Below, one piece after another: positions 4,411 through 41,120 of a stretch of 64,000 nucleotides of DNA (positions are counted from its first letter, which is position 1; every line of letters starts with the position of its first letter). Made by a program: the position numbers and the translations under genes. The DNA is from a phage. The stretch lies in sequence record PZ179883.1. One strand, written 5' to 3'. The notes under the pieces are model-generated. The model was given only the letters and a program-made list of their open reading frames with translations. It searched no databases and was not told the DNA's origin.

Positions 4411-4587
4411 TTATGCTTTCTGCTTACCAAAACGAGAAGCATCATCTCGAAGAACCGCACGTGCTCGGCGCATGATCTTCTCAACAGTTTGATTGATACG
4501 AGAGTTCGACCCACGCTTGTAGCCAGCGCGTTTAGAATCACCAACTTTCTTTTCAACTGCTTTCTTTGCTTTAGCTTGTTTTGCCAT
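4411..4587 (-). CDS. small basic protein (30.9 position)
   Basis: Lys/Arg-rich ORF; start placed at the internal ATG (MAKQAKAKK...), the track start at 4629 has no RBS. Confidence 0.45.
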   Translation of the reverse strand: MAKQAKAKKAVEKKVGDSKRAGYKRGSNSRINQTVEKIMRRARAVLRDDASRFGKQKA

Positions 4588-4707
4588 TATAAATTCTCTT
4601 TTAAATGAAAATGCAGGACTTATTGGCATTGCCTGCGCAAGCCCTCAAGGGGAACATAGGTTTTTGAATATTTAACGACCAGGATAACCATAAACCCGTC
4701 ATCATAC

Positions 4708-37055: not shown

Positions 37056-37160
37056 TTTAATCTCCGTTTCAGTTCATTTATTTGATAGGTCTATAATATC
37101 ATGTTTAAAGCAGAAGTAAACACTTTTTTGCACTCTTTTTCAAGAGCTCTAATAAAGTAC

Positions 37161-37388
37161 TTACTTAATGTTCAGATTACGAACTTCGATTTCGTCTTCA
37201 TGGGCAAAATCAAACTGTTTGAATTCTGTGTCACCTTTAAATTTAAAAATCATTGTGAAGAAAGTCAGAACACCAGGTTTTTCTTCACGAACTCCACAGA
37301 TATCATATTCAATACCATCTACAACCAGTTTGTTAGCAGTCAGAGCATTTTTAGCTTTAACGATTTCGTTTTCGATTTTAAATTTCAT
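37161..37388 (-). CDS. hypothetical protein
   Basis: 75-aa ORF with GGAG RBS directly downstream of an early-promoter motif. Confidence 0.5.
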   Translation of the reverse strand: MKFKIENEIVKAKNALTANKLVVDGIEYDICGVREEKPGVLTFFTMIFKFKGDTEFKQFDFAHEDEIEVRNLNIK

Positions 37389-37437
37389 TTTTTGTATCTC
37401 CGGGTTGTTTGTTTCAGTTCATTTAGTTGATAGTTGT

Positions 37438-37466
37438 ATAGTACCACAGTATGCTTTGGTTGTAAA
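37438..37466 (-). promoter_or_regulatory. early promoter (T4-type sigma-70)
   Basis: Minus strand: GGTTTACA, 17 nt, TGGTACTAT; directly after the terminator at 37498..37528. Confidence 0.55.
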
Positions 37467-37497: not shown

Positions 37498-37528
37498 AGG
37501 GAGAGCCGAGGCTCTCCCTAAAATTACT
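37498..37528 (-). terminator. rho-independent terminator
   Basis: Minus strand GGGAGAGC-CUCG-GCUCUCCC followed by UUUUUUUAUUUU; after ORF 37524..37673. Confidence 0.65.
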
Positions 37529-37673
37529 GCATGACTGTGATAACTGTCATGATAACGCGTTGAATTCCGAACGCAAGAAGACCTCCTGCTACGGCTGGAA
37601 CAACACCTAAACCCGCCAGTAAAATGCTACCAGATACTAATGCCGCGCTTGTAATACCTATGAATGGACTCAT
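37524..37673 (-). CDS. small hydrophobic membrane peptide
   Basis: 49-aa ORF MSPFIGITSAALVSGSILLAGLGVVPAVAGGLL..., ATGA overlap with gene 52 stop; strong terminator right after. Confidence 0.4.
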   Translation of the reverse strand: MSPFIGITSAALVSGSILLAGLGVVPAVAGGLLAFGIQRVIMTVITVMQ

Positions 37674-38998
37674 TTGATTTCCTCTAAATCTTTAGTGTAT
37701 TCTGTAACTACATCAGTAGTTTTCCAATATTCGTTTTCTTCTTTTTTGGCTTTAGCTTCTTCAGCAAGTTTCTTTGCTTCGTCGGAAGTCATATGAAAAA
37801 TGTTCATTCCAACTAGTTTATCAACATAAGAAGAATACATATCAATTTTAGAAAGTTCTTCGGTCAGTTCTTTGCGAGTTTTACCTTGTACAACAATTTC
37901 ACCTGAAATTACTTTCTTAATGAAATGTGCCTTGGCAAAAGCTAAACGAAATGCTGATTCAGTTTCTTTGATTTTGTTATCAATTCGTTTTTGGACATAA
38001 GTTTTACGAACTTCAACGAAGTCTTTGATTAAATTAACTACATTATCGTAAACTTGCAGCTTTCCTTTCTCATTAATGACGGTAATATTCTGGGAACGAC
38101 GCTCAATCAACCCGAAGTCTTTCATAATTTTTGCATGGCGTTCTTCTTCATTATCGCTCAAAGAGTATTCTTTTCGGAATTTAACTTTGAAGCCAAAGCC
38201 ATGCTCACCACAAGCATCATCCCATGTAATGAAGCCTTTATCTTCAAGCGGGTCTAAGATTTTACTCACATAAGTTTCACGATCATACTTATATGGAATC
38301 TCAGTGATATGCATTTGAGTTCGTGAAGTAAACTTATATGTTCCACGAATTTCATATTGCCCATCAATTTCAACGACTTCACCACGAAATTCTGGGAATT
38401 CTACCTTCGGTTTAGTTACTTTCTTTCCTTGAAGAGCTTGCAGTACAGCTTTCTTGACAGAAGAAACACTATGAGGAAGAATGTAAGTTGCATAACCAGT
38501 TGCAATACCGGAAACGCCATTAAGAAGAACAGTAGGAATAATAGGCAAATAGAAAGCAGGCGGAATGTGTTCTTTATCTTGATGTACTGGAGCATATTCA
38601 GTATCTTTATATACGTTATAGAAATTTTTACTTACACGAGCAAAAATATAACGACTTGCTGCTGCCTTTTGGACAGTACGAGAACCAAAGTTTCCTTGAC
38701 CGTCTAACAGAGGAAAGTTATTATTCCAAGTGTTAGCCATCAAAGCACCTGCGTCTTGTGCAGAGTTTTCACCATGATGATATCCAAGGTCCGCTACACC
38801 GCCTGCGATAGAAGCGAGTTTGTGAAACTTATCTTTATTTCCTCGTGCCAAATCAAGAGCTCGAGCAATAACAAATCGTTGAACTGGCTTAAATCCGTCA
38901 ATCATATTTGGAATGGCACGATTTTCAACCGTGTACATAGCATAAGCCAATGCTTCATTATCAATGATACTTTTTAAATCACGATTATTCAGTTGCAT
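37670..38998 (-). CDS. 52: DNA topoisomerase II medium subunit gp52 (GyrA-like)
   Basis: 442-aa ORF with the catalytic-tyrosine region; matches T4 gp52. Confidence 0.92.
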   Translation of the reverse strand: MQLNNRDLKSIIDNEALAYAMYTVENRAIPNMIDGFKPVQRFVIARALDLARGNKDKFHKLASIAGGVADLGYHHGENSAQDAGALMANTWNNNFPLLDGQGNFGSRTVQKAAASRYIFARVSKNFYNVYKDTEYAPVHQDKEHIPPAFYLPIIPTVLLNGVSGIATGYATYILPHSVSSVKKAVLQALQGKKVTKPKVEFPEFRGEVVEIDGQYEIRGTYKFTSRTQMHITEIPYKYDRETYVSKILDPLEDKGFITWDDACGEHGFGFKVKFRKEYSLSDNEEERHAKIMKDFGLIERRSQNITVINEKGKLQVYDNVVNLIKDFVEVRKTYVQKRIDNKIKETESAFRLAFAKAHFIKKVISGEIVVQGKTRKELTEELSKIDMYSSYVDKLVGMNIFHMTSDEAKKLAEEAKAKKEENEYWKTTDVVTEYTKDLEEIK

Positions 38999-39002
38999 AA
39001 AT

Positions 39003-39143
39003 TTACCATACTAGTGAATGTAGTGCCATAATAACATCAGAAATGAAAAGCACGACTTGAATTAATCCGAACATTATTCCGTAATATAATGCTATCAATA
39101 AAATAGCAAGGGCTAATGAATAGCCCAAGATTTTCTTAATCAT
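39003..39143 (-). CDS. small hydrophobic membrane peptide
   Basis: 46-aa ORF MIKKILGYSLALAILLIALYYGIMFGL..., hand-translated. Confidence 0.35.
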   Translation of the reverse strand: MIKKILGYSLALAILLIALYYGIMFGLIQVVLFISDVIMALHSLVW

Positions 39144-39294
39144 TAGTAGATAACAACACAAATGTTAAATATGCACACATACCCTGAGCTAAAGCTTGCG
39201 AAAACACACTGCTGGCATCAATACAGATAGTTAAAACACATGCTACTATCCAACAAATAAATGAAATAACTCCTAATAATTTTGCGATATTCAT
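39136..39294 (-). CDS. ac: small membrane protein, probable Ac (acridine sensitivity)
   Basis: 52-aa hydrophobic ORF in the T4 ac position between 52 and stp. Confidence 0.5.
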   Translation of the reverse strand: MNIAKLLGVISFICWIVACVLTICIDASSVFSQALAQGMCAYLTFVLLSTND

Positions 39295-39301
39295 ATTTTC
39301 C

Positions 39302-39382
39302 TCACTGGCGTCCGAAGACGCCTTTAGTTTTAAGATTATTACGATAGAACTGCATCACGTGTTCGTTGTGGAAATTACTCAT
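39302..39382 (-). CDS. stp: Stp peptide (inhibitor of EcoprrI restriction, activator of PrrC anticodon nuclease)
   Basis: 26-codon [29 protein letters not shown], identical in length and sequence to T4 Stp as recalled; ATG overlaps ndd stop. Confidence 0.85.
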
Positions 39383-39840
39383 TAATATGCCTGCAAAACG
39401 AATTTAAAATTATCAGCCAACATACGGTTCATTTCTTCAAGTGTTTGATACTCAGAATGATGATTACGAGTAAACGCTAAAGCTAACTGTCCTTTTCCAA
39501 ATCCCGTCGTCAAAGGTTTCATCTTAGAAGCAGGCAGATAAAATACTGTGTATGGAACATTGTTATTTGCAATAGTACGTGCAAGCTGAGACCGACGTTG
39601 ACGAATATGACTTAGAACTGCACTGAATCCTTGCTTAGAACGCTGATTACCTACATAAAATCGTGCAGACACGCATGGATTACTAAATGGACGACCATCT
39701 AATTTACTCACTAAAAAGTAAAATCCAGGTTTAGATAAAAAGTCTTTATGCGGAGTTCCCAAAAACCATTCACCGTTCTTGATTGTACCAATAACGGTAG
39801 CGCCCGCATTATTCAGATCAGTAGCAGTCATATATTTCAT
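39382..39840 (-). CDS. ndd: Ndd nucleoid-disruption protein
   Basis: Start at [28 protein letters not shown]...; matches T4 Ndd. Confidence 0.85.
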
Positions 39841-39900
39841 ATTAATTTCCTCTAAATTATTTTCTACTCCAAGGCCGCATGAATACACGCAGCCATTAAA

Positions 39901-40116
39901 TTAATCGTCGCAGTCGACGCTCAATTCCCAAAACTCTTCTACGATATAAGTTTCAGTATCATTTTCAATACAGAAACGTTCATTACTGTTATTTGCTAAA
40001 GTAGCATTAACTGTCGGTTTCTCGCTAGTGCTCTTAAGAGGTGAAATACGAATTAACTGATCACCATTATCTAAACAAAAAATTTCACCAACTTTTACAT
40101 CTTTAAAGATTTTCAT
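39901..40116 (-). CDS. hypothetical protein
   Basis: 71-aa ORF. Confidence 0.45.
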   Translation of the reverse strand: MKIFKDVKVGEIFCLDNGDQLIRISPLKSTSEKPTVNATLANNSNERFCIENDTETYIVEEFWELSVDCDD

Positions 40117-40231
40117 AATTCACCTCAAGGAGTATAAAATCCAAACGCAGTTGTTGACCATCCCATCCAATATGGGAAATTTGCGCCAATGTAAAACATA
40201 AGAATATAAAACCAACCGCTCAGCAAATTCA

Positions 40232-40429
40232 TCATTTTACACCATTCCAAATTGTTTCAACCACGGATTTTAAACCATTTTGATGAATGTCCATTCCAAC
40301 TACCGCCATCAAATAGATTCCAACTACAACTGAACCTAAGGCAAAAATCAGCATGAAAATGAATAAAGCCGGAAAAATATTATCGAAAAACCATTCAATA
40401 AATGTAAAAGCACTGCGTTTACGCTTCAT
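40232..40429 (-). CDS. small membrane protein
   Basis: Start at MKRKRSAFTF with GAGGA RBS; one or two predicted transmembrane helices. Confidence 0.45.
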   Translation of the reverse strand: MKRKRSAFTFIEWFFDNIFPALFIFMLIFALGSVVVGIYLMAVVGMDIHQNGLKSVVETIWNGVK

Positions 40430-40436
40430 ATTTTCC

Positions 40437-40550
40437 TCACATAAATCCAAAGTAAGCGTTTAATACATCAATCATTAAAACGATTGGGAATATACTCAAA
40501 ACTACTAGTATTATAACTACATTCCATATAGCTTTAACAATCTTTTTCAT
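40437..40550 (-). CDS. small membrane peptide
   Basis: 37-aa ORF MKKIVKAIWNVVIILVVLSIFPIVLMIDVLNAYFGFM with GGAGG RBS; the longer track ORF would start upstream of its own promoter. Confidence 0.4.
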   Translation of the reverse strand: MKKIVKAIWNVVIILVVLSIFPIVLMIDVLNAYFGFM

Positions 40551-40578
40551 TTTCTGTTCCTCCGTAGTTGATAGGGTA

Positions 40579-40607
40579 ATAGTACCACGGAAGAACAGTC
40601 TTGTAAA
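40579..40607 (-). promoter_or_regulatory. early promoter (T4-type sigma-70)
   Basis: Minus strand: GTTTACA, 17 nt, TGGTACTAT. Confidence 0.5.
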
Positions 40608-40793
40608 CAACTTTTTTAAAAATATTCGTAATAAATGTGAATACCAACTACTACCGCTGAAACCTGTGCAACCCACCACGCACAAGCAATAAGTACAGAA
40701 TTCAAAATTTTCATAATAACCTCATTACAAAAGTAAATGTTAAACAAATTAATGGAATACTAATTAACCAAACAAAACACCACCATAGTGAAC

Positions 40794-41057
40794 TCATAGT
40801 TCAATCTCAGCGATTTTCATTTCATTACTATTAATAGCCGCTTTAAGACTATCTGAAAGAATTACATTCCAGTGGTCATTCATATGACCATTAACTAAGC
40901 GTGTAATTTCTTCGGGAGTTGAAAAATAAGGCGTATCAGACTCCCAATGCGATAATCCTAAGCGAGTATAAATCATGCCTTCATCATCGCTAGAATATTC
41001 AACTGACACAAACTCATCAGTTATTTTATGTTTAGCGTAATAAAATTTAAATTTCAT
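40794..41057 (-). CDS. hypothetical protein
   Basis: Start at the internal ATG 41055-41057 (MKFKFYYAKHK...) with GGAGAG RBS, downstream of the early-promoter motif at 41092-41120. Confidence 0.5.
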   Translation of the reverse strand: MKFKFYYAKHKITDEFVSVEYSSDDEGMIYTRLGLSHWESDTPYFSTPEEITRLVNGHMNDHWNVILSDSLKAAINSNEMKIAEIEL

Positions 41058-41091: not shown

Positions 41092-41120
41092 ATAGTACCA
41101 CGGTCCTTGTGGTATGTAAA
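41092..41120 (-). promoter_or_regulatory. early promoter (T4-type sigma-70)
   Basis: Minus strand: GGTTTACA, 17 nt, TGGTACTAT; just downstream of denB. Confidence 0.55.

Follow-up and report, generated by a model that had tools for sequence, protein, structure and literature searches.

What do the very small hydrophobic open reading frames (ORFs) packed around gene 52, ac, stp and ndd of T4-like phages encode, and of what use could their products be to the phage? The question is raised by a 64,000-nucleotide stretch of phage DNA (sequence record PZ179883.1; the whole stretch is called the window here), in which an earlier reading of the letters alone had listed six such ORFs, most with a ribosome-binding site and coupled start and stop codons. 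The hydrophobic ORFs turn out to be genuine coding genes rather than chance ORFs, and we propose that their products are probably accessory early inner-membrane micro-proteins acting on host envelope complexes.

The window is part of a Tequatrovirus (T4-like) genome. The 4.2 kb around the array are 99.4% identical to Escherichia phages ES19/ES21; several hundred other Tequatrovirus genomes match them at 95-99% identity, and about 480-485 records contain the region (>80% of it). Gene order is collinear with the T4 segment motA - motA.1 - 52 - 52.1 - ac - stp - ndd - ndd.1 ... ndd.6 - denB and runs entirely on the minus strand. Order, strand, junctions and coupling of the small genes all equal those of T4, with an amino-acid identity of 92-100%. 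The small hydrophobic ORFs are thus the long-annotated T4 genes motA.1, 52.1, ac, stp and ndd.2 to ndd.6, with existing family models. As a discovery the cluster does not stand: every ORF in it is a T4 gene already annotated and assigned to a PHROG family of its own, several of them to Pfam families as well. All six ORFs of the list were found on the minus strand, five of them at exactly the claimed coordinates, while the "roughly 30-aa ORF near 40620..40713" is the 32-amino-acid (aa) ndd.5 at 40616..40714; ndd.2 and ndd.6 are members of the array beyond that list. The array and its context genes are given below, with the ratio of nonsynonymous to synonymous polymorphism (pN/pS) or the number of phage records for some of them.

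37524..37673, minus strand: motA.1, 49 aa, Gly/Ala-rich hydrophobic peptide; phrog_3487, E=2e-31; pN/pS 0.086
37670..38998, minus strand: gene 52, topoisomerase II medium subunit, context gene with small membrane-peptide ORFs on either flank
39003..39143, minus strand: 52.1, DUF7396, 46 aa, starting at the ATG that overlaps the ac stop; PF24129, phrog_3595
39136..39294, minus strand: ac, 52 aa, T4 Ac with one extra Thr near the C-terminus; phrog_2501
39302..39382, minus strand: stp, 26 aa, hydrophilic, 100% identical to T4 Stp; PF08133
39382..39840, minus strand: ndd, nucleoid disruption protein, context gene
39901..40116, minus strand: ndd.1, 71 aa, acidic and soluble, not a membrane peptide
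40125..40235, minus strand: ndd.2, 36 aa; phrog_4135, E=2e-24; pN/pS 0.14; 519 records
40232..40429, minus strand: ndd.3 (T4 ndd.2a plus ndd.3), DUF7248, 65 aa; PF23906
40437..40550, minus strand: ndd.4, 37 aa, KK..K N-terminus and one predicted transmembrane helix; phrog_3098, E=3e-21; 596 records
40616..40714, minus strand: ndd.5, 32 aa, one predicted transmembrane helix; phrog_5011, E=4e-26; pN/pS 0.09
40711..40797, minus strand: ndd.6, 28 aa, one predicted transmembrane helix; phrog_8851, E=3e-17; 494 records

The match of each peptide to its one PHROG family spans the full length (E 3e-17 to 2e-31), and MotA.1, Ndd.2, Ndd.4, Ndd.5 and Ndd.6 occupy the same map positions as in T4. Among Pfam models, PF24129 is matched by 52.1 over the whole model (positions 1-46 of 46; 78.3 bits, cut-off 27), PF23906 is matched by the 65-aa Ndd.3 (71.9 bits, cut-off 27) and PF08133 by Stp (75.3 bits, cut-off 25, E=2e-21); precomputed annotations contribute the newer families PF26886 for MotA.1 and PF26944 for members of the Ac cluster. 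Ac itself is 96% identical to T4 Ac (NP_049877) over 51 aa, the T4 protein having 51 aa and that of the window 52, and matches phrog_2501 with E=3.7e-25. As in T4, it is located between stp and 52.1, upstream of gene 52. Its sole NCBIfam hit, Bac51, reached 14.8 bits against a cut-off of 150 and was discarded as noise.

Family membership is accompanied by selection on the protein sequence. A comparison of conservation and of nonsynonymous to synonymous change (Ka/Ks) across T4-like phages, one of the checks that the sequence-only reading had named for these frames, reveals purifying selection in the annotated frame. Within the genus, statistics were calculated from 16 Tequatrovirus genomes, i.e. 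the window and orthologues extracted from 15 others. Variable sites of eight hydrophobic ORFs are distributed 23/12/70 over codon positions 1/2/3 (chi-square p = 1.7e-12). Concatenated, they give a pN/pS of 0.14 in the annotated frame, as against 1.22 and 1.80 in the shifted frames; single genes range from 0.05 to 0.24, within or close to the values of the long genes nearby (0.01 to 0.08 for motA, gene 52, ndd and denB). That the ORFs arose by chance and are hydrophobic only through their T-rich coding strand might be suspected from their shortness, from the weak ribosome-binding sites of some and from the lack of any peptide detected by mass spectrometry. Codon-position bias and the in-frame ratio refute this idea, full-length family matches and the genetic evidence for Ac also contradict it, and it can hardly be true.

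Conservation extends beyond the genus, with homologues of 52.1, ac, stp, ndd.2, ndd.3, ndd.4 and ndd.6 in other genera. The comparison panel was built from GenBank phage records; a scan of IMG/VR with Ndd yielded 5 loci only. Orthologues of 52.1, always directly 5' of gene 52, are 54-85% identical in Mosig-, Dhaka-, Gapriver-, Marfa- and Jiaodavirus, and Enterobacter phage SonariX has a weaker 30% match. The C-terminal half of 52.1, ~LYYG..(V/I)VLFISD(V/A)I....S(L/F)(V/I)W, is conserved in 6/7 genera. Homologues of ndd.4 are 58-61% identical in Dhaka- and Gaprivervirus, those of ndd.6 39-54% in Mosig-, Dhaka- and Gaprivervirus; ndd.2 has a Marfavirus homologue at 44%, and the C-terminal helix of Ndd.3 is kept across genera at 26-42% identity. 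For ndd.5, unfiltered local tblastn found the gene in 15/15 Tequatrovirus loci at 94-100%, a filtered tblastn against the phage collection having returned no match as an artefact of the low-complexity filter. In that collection of 50,697 records the tested genes are each retained in about 490-710, compared with the number given above for the whole region; motA.1 is present in 493, all at least 80% identical. Many GenBank records carry no annotated feature for 52.1.

All families of the set are restricted to T4-type phages. Searches with MotA.1, DUF7248, Ac and 52.1 returned only T4-type phage proteins or contigs and no bacterial relative that could serve as a functional lead. MotA.1 forms 16 clusters, all at least 82% identical; 52.1 forms 8 clusters only among 1.84 billion representatives. 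The contigs that carry DUF7248 measure about 165-172 kb and belong to phages of Escherichia, Klebsiella and Enterobacter; Ac occurs in Tequatro-, Mosig-, Dhaka- and Jiaodavirus.

Several gene models of T4 can be corrected by the same comparison. At the start of the 65-aa ORF the T4 record NC_000866 reads ATGAACGT, whereas the window has ATGAAGCGT, as do three T4 genomes that were sequenced independently (OZ209057, KJ477684, HM137666). The deficit of NC_000866 is one G (ATGAA[G]CGT; window 40232..40429, NC_000866 locus extract 4433..4629), and owing to this missing G two genes are annotated there, ndd.3 (26 aa, out of frame) and ndd.2a (40 aa, starting at an internal Met). What exists in truth is one gene for a 65-aa DUF7248 protein, annotated so already in T4T (HM137666), and the 26-aa "Ndd.3" of T4 is an out-of-frame artefact; it is listed as a PHROG singleton in the supplement of CRISPRi-ART, a dCas13d knock-down screen. 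The T4 annotation used in the transposon screen HIDEN-SEQ assigns 198 nucleotides (nt) to the ndd.2a/ndd.3 pair, consistent with a single ORF. The conserved start of ndd.4 yields 37 aa, while the 42-aa form of T4 needs an upstream ATG specific to T4. In ndd.2 translation may in fact begin at the second ATG (35 aa), given that the first one is ATA in three relatives, for which the second is the only start.

Hydropathy was evaluated on the Kyte-Doolittle scale, with a mean of at least 1.6 over a 17-residue window as the threshold for transmembrane grade. The threshold is reached by motA.1, 52.1, ac, the 65-aa ORF, ndd.4, ndd.5 and ndd.6, whose grand average of hydropathy (GRAVY) is 0.85-1.80. 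Stp is hydrophilic (GRAVY -1.03), and so are ndd.1 and two neighbouring ORFs of 75 and 87 aa. The prediction that all small ORFs but Stp encode membrane peptides is supported, seven ORFs passing the threshold; ndd.2, which is aromatic and carries no charged residue and a conserved PYW(M/L)GWS motif, is hydrophobic only weakly and stays below it (GRAVY 0.62).

For Ac, AlphaFold2 with a 14-sequence alignment predicts a helical hairpin, H3-24 and H28-49, with a mean predicted local distance difference test score (pLDDT) of 88. The invariant residues T22, V30, Q33, A34 and Q37 lie close together, at the turn and where helix 2 begins; in the window the motif of turn and helix 2 (T22, S29, V30, Q33, A34, Q37) is conserved and G38 is present. 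The model of the 65-aa Ndd.3 consists of H5-17 after a KRKR stretch, a 33-residue helix H19-51 (pLDDT about 90) and a C-terminal H53-64 with the conserved GLKSVVE.IWNG. Across 32 sequences of its family G52, K54 and G63 are invariant, and L53, S55, V57 and W61 nearly so. Ndd.3 and Ndd.4, with basic N-termini that fit the positive-inside rule, would have their N-termini inside, which would place the conserved tail of Ndd.3 in the periplasm; for Ac both termini are predicted to lie inside. From hydropathy and models we infer insertion of the peptides in the membrane.

Ac and Stp are the only members of the set with known activities. T4 with ac deleted or mutated is acriflavine-resistant (bioRxiv 10.1101/2025.06.30.662393; cited in PMC13250531). 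Expression of Ac from a plasmid raises the acriflavine sensitivity of E. coli by about 3 logs and sensitises the cells to ampicillin too, the substitution G38R leads to resistance, and the authors proposed that Ac inserts in the membrane and blocks AcrAB-TolC (bioRxiv 10.1101/2025.06.30.662393). The extra Thr of the window's Ac is also present in PP01 Ac and leaves sensitivity unchanged (same preprint). Stp is known from the literature to inhibit EcoprrI, thereby activating the PrrC anticodon nuclease.

When would these genes be expressed? In T4 all small genes of this set are classed as early transcripts (PMC9697503, Table S2). In the window four T4-type early promoters, with the pattern TTTAC[A/T], 16-17 nt, TA[C/T]TAT and an upstream TG, were found on the minus strand at 41120, 40607, 37466 and 37120. 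The elements that delimit the array are the following.

40579..40607, minus strand: early promoter (TTTACA, 17 nt, TACTAT, upstream TG), ndd.4 being the first gene downstream
41092..41120, minus strand: early promoter, T4-type, drives the 87-aa ORF, ndd.6 and ndd.5
37498..37519, minus strand: strong intrinsic terminator, 9-bp GC-rich stem and T run, at the end of the ndd.4..52..motA.1 unit

The unit of promoter 41120 thus comprises the 87-aa ORF, ndd.6 and ndd.5, and that of promoter 40607 comprises ndd.4, ndd.3, ndd.2, ndd.1, ndd, stp, ac, 52.1, 52, motA.1 and the terminator. Promoters 37466 and 37120 drive the 75-aa ORF and motA. At 39110..39126, within the 5' part of 52.1 (codons 6-12), lies a 6-bp GC-rich hairpin with a T-rich tail. 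The annotations of phages G4498 and NBG2 list it as a putative terminator, and read-through from ac into gene 52 could be attenuated by it.

The tight packing of the small ORFs, with ribosome-binding sites and start/stop coupling, is borne out by reading the sequence. GAGG or GGAGG stands 5-8 nt upstream of motA.1, ac, the 65-aa ORF (ndd.3), ndd.4 (GGAGG) and ndd.5 (GAGG). In six cases the start codon overlaps the stop of the gene before it. The motA.1 ATG overlaps the stop of gene 52 (ATGA), its GAGG lying inside the final gene 52 codons; 52.1, which has no Shine-Dalgarno sequence, starts on the ac stop (ATGATTAA) and ends 4 nt before the ATG of gene 52, whose own ribosome-binding site is weak. 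The stp start overlaps the ndd stop (TAATG), and ATGA overlaps join ndd.2 to the 65-aa ORF, ndd.5 to ndd.6 and ndd.6 to the 87-aa ORF. The same 16 nt (minus strand GTGAGGAAAATATGAA: stop codon, Shine-Dalgarno, start) form the junction ahead of ac, at 39290..39305, and ahead of the 65-aa ORF, at 40425..40440. The TGAGGAAAATATG junction is also found ahead of small hydrophobic ORFs in the matching slots (after stp, upstream of 52.1) of Dhaka- and Gaprivervirus.

From genus to genus, small hydrophobic ORFs invariably occupy the two slots that separate ndd from gene 52 and denB from ndd, though they belong in part to other families; in Aeromonas phage 44RR2.8t the slots are empty and ndd abuts gene 52. 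At least two more families of hydrophobic peptides, with two helices and 46-72 aa, take up the stp/ac slots between ndd and 52.1 in other genera (e.g. MIIIVFIELITAIVCSVCFFLGVWTPGP..., MSSFMKMLFAMGYLLVLALMICAGTY...). The stp/ac slot is conserved, its occupants turn over.

A positional pattern is seen on both sides of gene 52. In Tequatro-, Mosig-, Dhaka-, Gapriver-, Marfa- and Jiaodavirus gene 52 is followed by a transmembrane ORF, 23-59 aa long and rich in Gly/Ala, whose start codon overlaps the gene 52 stop (ATGA/TTGA) and whose Shine-Dalgarno sequence lies within the last gp52 codons; in these six genera DUF7396 abuts the 5' end of gene 52. Where the sequence downstream was read (Tequatro- and Mosigvirus), a terminator hairpin follows directly after the ORF. 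Between the six genera no sequence similarity of these ORFs is detectable, and the relatives examined from SonariX, Tegunavirus, Acinetobacter and Aeromonas phages lack such an ORF. MotA.1 as one member of a wider, sequence-divergent class of gene 52-coupled membrane micro-proteins is a doubtful proposition. If true, there would be selection for co-expression, one-to-one with a topoisomerase subunit, of a membrane micro-protein, for instance one that tethers or localises gp52 or its mRNA at the membrane. Alternatively, the gene 52 stop could be a recurrent birthplace of new membrane peptides. We have not found this positional pattern described as one pattern and regard it as a lead, not as a result. 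The notion of 52.1 and MotA.1 as obligatory partners of topoisomerase II is weakened, as both are non-essential while gene 52 is required, and both are absent from Aeromonas phage 44RR2.8t and from Acinetobacter and Tegunavirus relatives.

This arrangement would also suit ORFs that serve as translational-coupling or spacer cistrons tuning their neighbours (e.g. ac to 52.1 to gene 52 to motA.1), the peptides themselves being irrelevant. The position of 52.1 between the ac stop and the weakly served gene 52 ATG agrees with such a role, and so does a hydrophobic ORF on the gene 52 stop in six genera with no detectable similarity between them. However, amino-acid sequences are conserved while synonymous sites vary, and both the C-terminal motif of 52.1 and the C-terminal helix of Ndd.3 persist across genera at the identities given above. 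Moreover, knock-down of 52.1 or ac is without fitness effect though gene 52 is required, and 16/16 TA sites in 52.1 tolerate insertion, which together make purely regulatory cistrons very improbable.

The arrays are flanked in the window by two early genes that are missing from T4.

40794..41057, minus strand: 87-aa ORF, acidic and soluble (phrog_2390), translationally coupled to ndd.6, deleted in T4
37161..37388, minus strand: 75-aa ORF, hydrophilic, early, not in T4, T2 or RB18

The pair of 87-aa ORF and ndd.6 is conserved in Mosig-, Dhaka- and Gaprivervirus. In T4 the last ~16 nt of the deleted 87-aa ORF are kept upstream of ndd.6, and RB18, like T4, lacks the ORF. Its copies within Tequatrovirus fall into two divergent alleles, of which one is about 97-100% and the other about 52-55% identical to that of the window. 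Around the 75-aa ORF, window positions 37140..37419 are identical to Dhakavirus IME281 in 276/280 nt, whereas divergence is much greater in the genes on either flank, gene 52 (about 73%) and motA. This ORF lies between two copies of an early-promoter module, 37411-37446 and 37066-37101, which are 86% identical to each other, and has the look of a PeSL-type cassette, flanked by promoters and exchanged in recent times (PMC2839356, PMC4122927). The Emp paper on Mosigvirus AV110, considered as a possible source on function, concerns a 109-aa protein beside motA and not these peptides.

Do the peptides matter to the phage? Genome-wide screens of T4, performed in E. coli K-12, assign no fitness effect to these genes. 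By CRISPRi-ART every small gene is 'Not Fit' and gene 52 'Fit' (PMC11879866 supplement). All small genes are non-essential in HIDEN-SEQ as well: every TA site was hit in motA.1, 52.1, ndd.2, ndd.4, ndd.5 and ndd.6, 7/8 in ndd.2a and 6/7 in ndd.3. In the phage T2 record PV648363 a frameshift interrupts ac after 10 codons, Stp (27 aa there) ends in an altered C-terminus, and the 65-aa ORF is cut short at 44 aa; these losses are gene decay in a laboratory lineage and agree with dispensability. Nearly neutral cargo, persisting by linkage and recombination in a plastic region, would look alike in being non-essential under every tested condition, truncated or frameshifted at ac, stp and ndd.3 in T2, and accompanied by an 87-aa ORF that T4 and RB18 lack. 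Such cargo would not be expected to show a pN/pS of 0.05-0.24, to stay intact in nearly all of about 490 Tequatrovirus records or, for some genes, to be conserved since several genera diverged; we consider this explanation improbable.

Being early, non-essential, membrane-located and variable between genera, the peptides also have the profile of arms-race genes. They could specifically be factors of superinfection exclusion or of anti-defence (or defence triggers). In favour of this are their location in a plastic region between core genes, near which promoter-flanked cassettes occur, and the interaction of the neighbour Stp with the host restriction/PrrC system. Against this, the set has no Pfam-A match besides its own families at E <= 0.1 and so no likeness in sequence to any described exclusion, toxin or holin family. 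HIDEN-SEQ gave no conditional hit and no depletion for these genes against RexAB, RnlAB, CBASS, DarTG1 or DarTG2, nor a conditional hit in minimal medium, and the sole membrane-peptide phenotype, that of Ac, is drug accumulation and acridine sensitisation, not phage exclusion. We give this possibility a small, though real, chance.

The reading that we prefer is that of accessory inner-membrane micro-proteins directed at the host envelope. The sigma-70-type early promoters at 41120 and 40607 would transcribe the small genes in the first minutes of infection, and translation would proceed largely via coupling to upstream neighbours. All products but Stp would most likely be inserted in the host inner membrane as micro-proteins of one or two helices, where each may bind a host envelope complex and modulate its activity. 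What the phage gains would depend on host, drug or competitor and would not be a core function. Ac, as a helical hairpin proposed to block AcrAB-TolC efflux, would be the prototype; for the seven peptides without a phenotype, host-complex targeting is something we infer.

Several observations weigh against this reading. No functional report or phenotype was found in the literature for motA.1, 52.1, ndd.2, ndd.3, ndd.4, ndd.5 or ndd.6, and the interaction of Ac with AcrAB-TolC is a proposal from a preprint, not a demonstrated contact. The mass-spectrometric time course of the T4 proteome detected Ndd and Ndd.1 and none of the small peptides, Stp included (PMC9697503, Table S2; Class_P = NA for the hydrophobic peptides), and ribosome-profiling data for T4 were not found in the literature. 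Translation is therefore deduced from selection, except for Ac and Stp with their genetic or biochemical support. Within the genus ndd.4 has no synonymous variation and only three variable sites, all conservative replacements, so that its coding status rests on cross-genus homologues; 52.1, with a pN/pS of 0.24 in frame versus 0.31 in the +1 frame, discriminates weakly between frames and draws its coding support mainly from cross-genus conservation.

About half of the T4 genes are still without a function. Small early membrane peptides are the least tractable class among them, being invisible to proteomics, often unannotated and silent in laboratory screens. Purifying selection on these nine makes them reasonable candidates for studies of host range, drug synergy and envelope targeting, and Ac links a 52-aa phage peptide to antibiotic and acridine sensitisation.

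Three kinds of known systems invite comparison. The type I toxins Hok/Gef, TisB and Ibs are short single-helix hydrophobic peptides of 19-50 aa. The set resembles them as short hydrophobic peptides but has no matching Pfam family, no antisense RNA partner (Rfam gave no significant family across the region) and no reported toxicity; neither a Pfam hit nor an NCBIfam hit above cut-off indicates homology to Hok/Gef, TisB, Ibs, Ldr or holins. Imm and Sp of T4 are early superinfection-exclusion proteins of T-even phages that act at the host cell envelope and are non-essential in the laboratory. The peptides are likewise early, predicted to be envelope-associated and dispensable in the laboratory, yet they are much shorter and have no known exclusion phenotype; provided that the Pfam copy holds Imm and Sp models, the restriction of their matches to their own families speaks against homology. 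The third system is AcrZ of E. coli, a small inner-membrane protein that regulates AcrB. Ac has no Pfam hit at E <= 0.1 and hence no AcrZ match, if the copy includes an AcrZ model. Regulators of this type and the set are alike in a size of 30-65 aa, in one or two transmembrane helices (predicted for the set) and in having no enzymatic domain, and the pump proposed as the target of Ac, AcrAB-TolC, is the same. The two differ in that Ac is predicted to be a hairpin and not a single helix, and that it would inhibit the pump rather than tune it.

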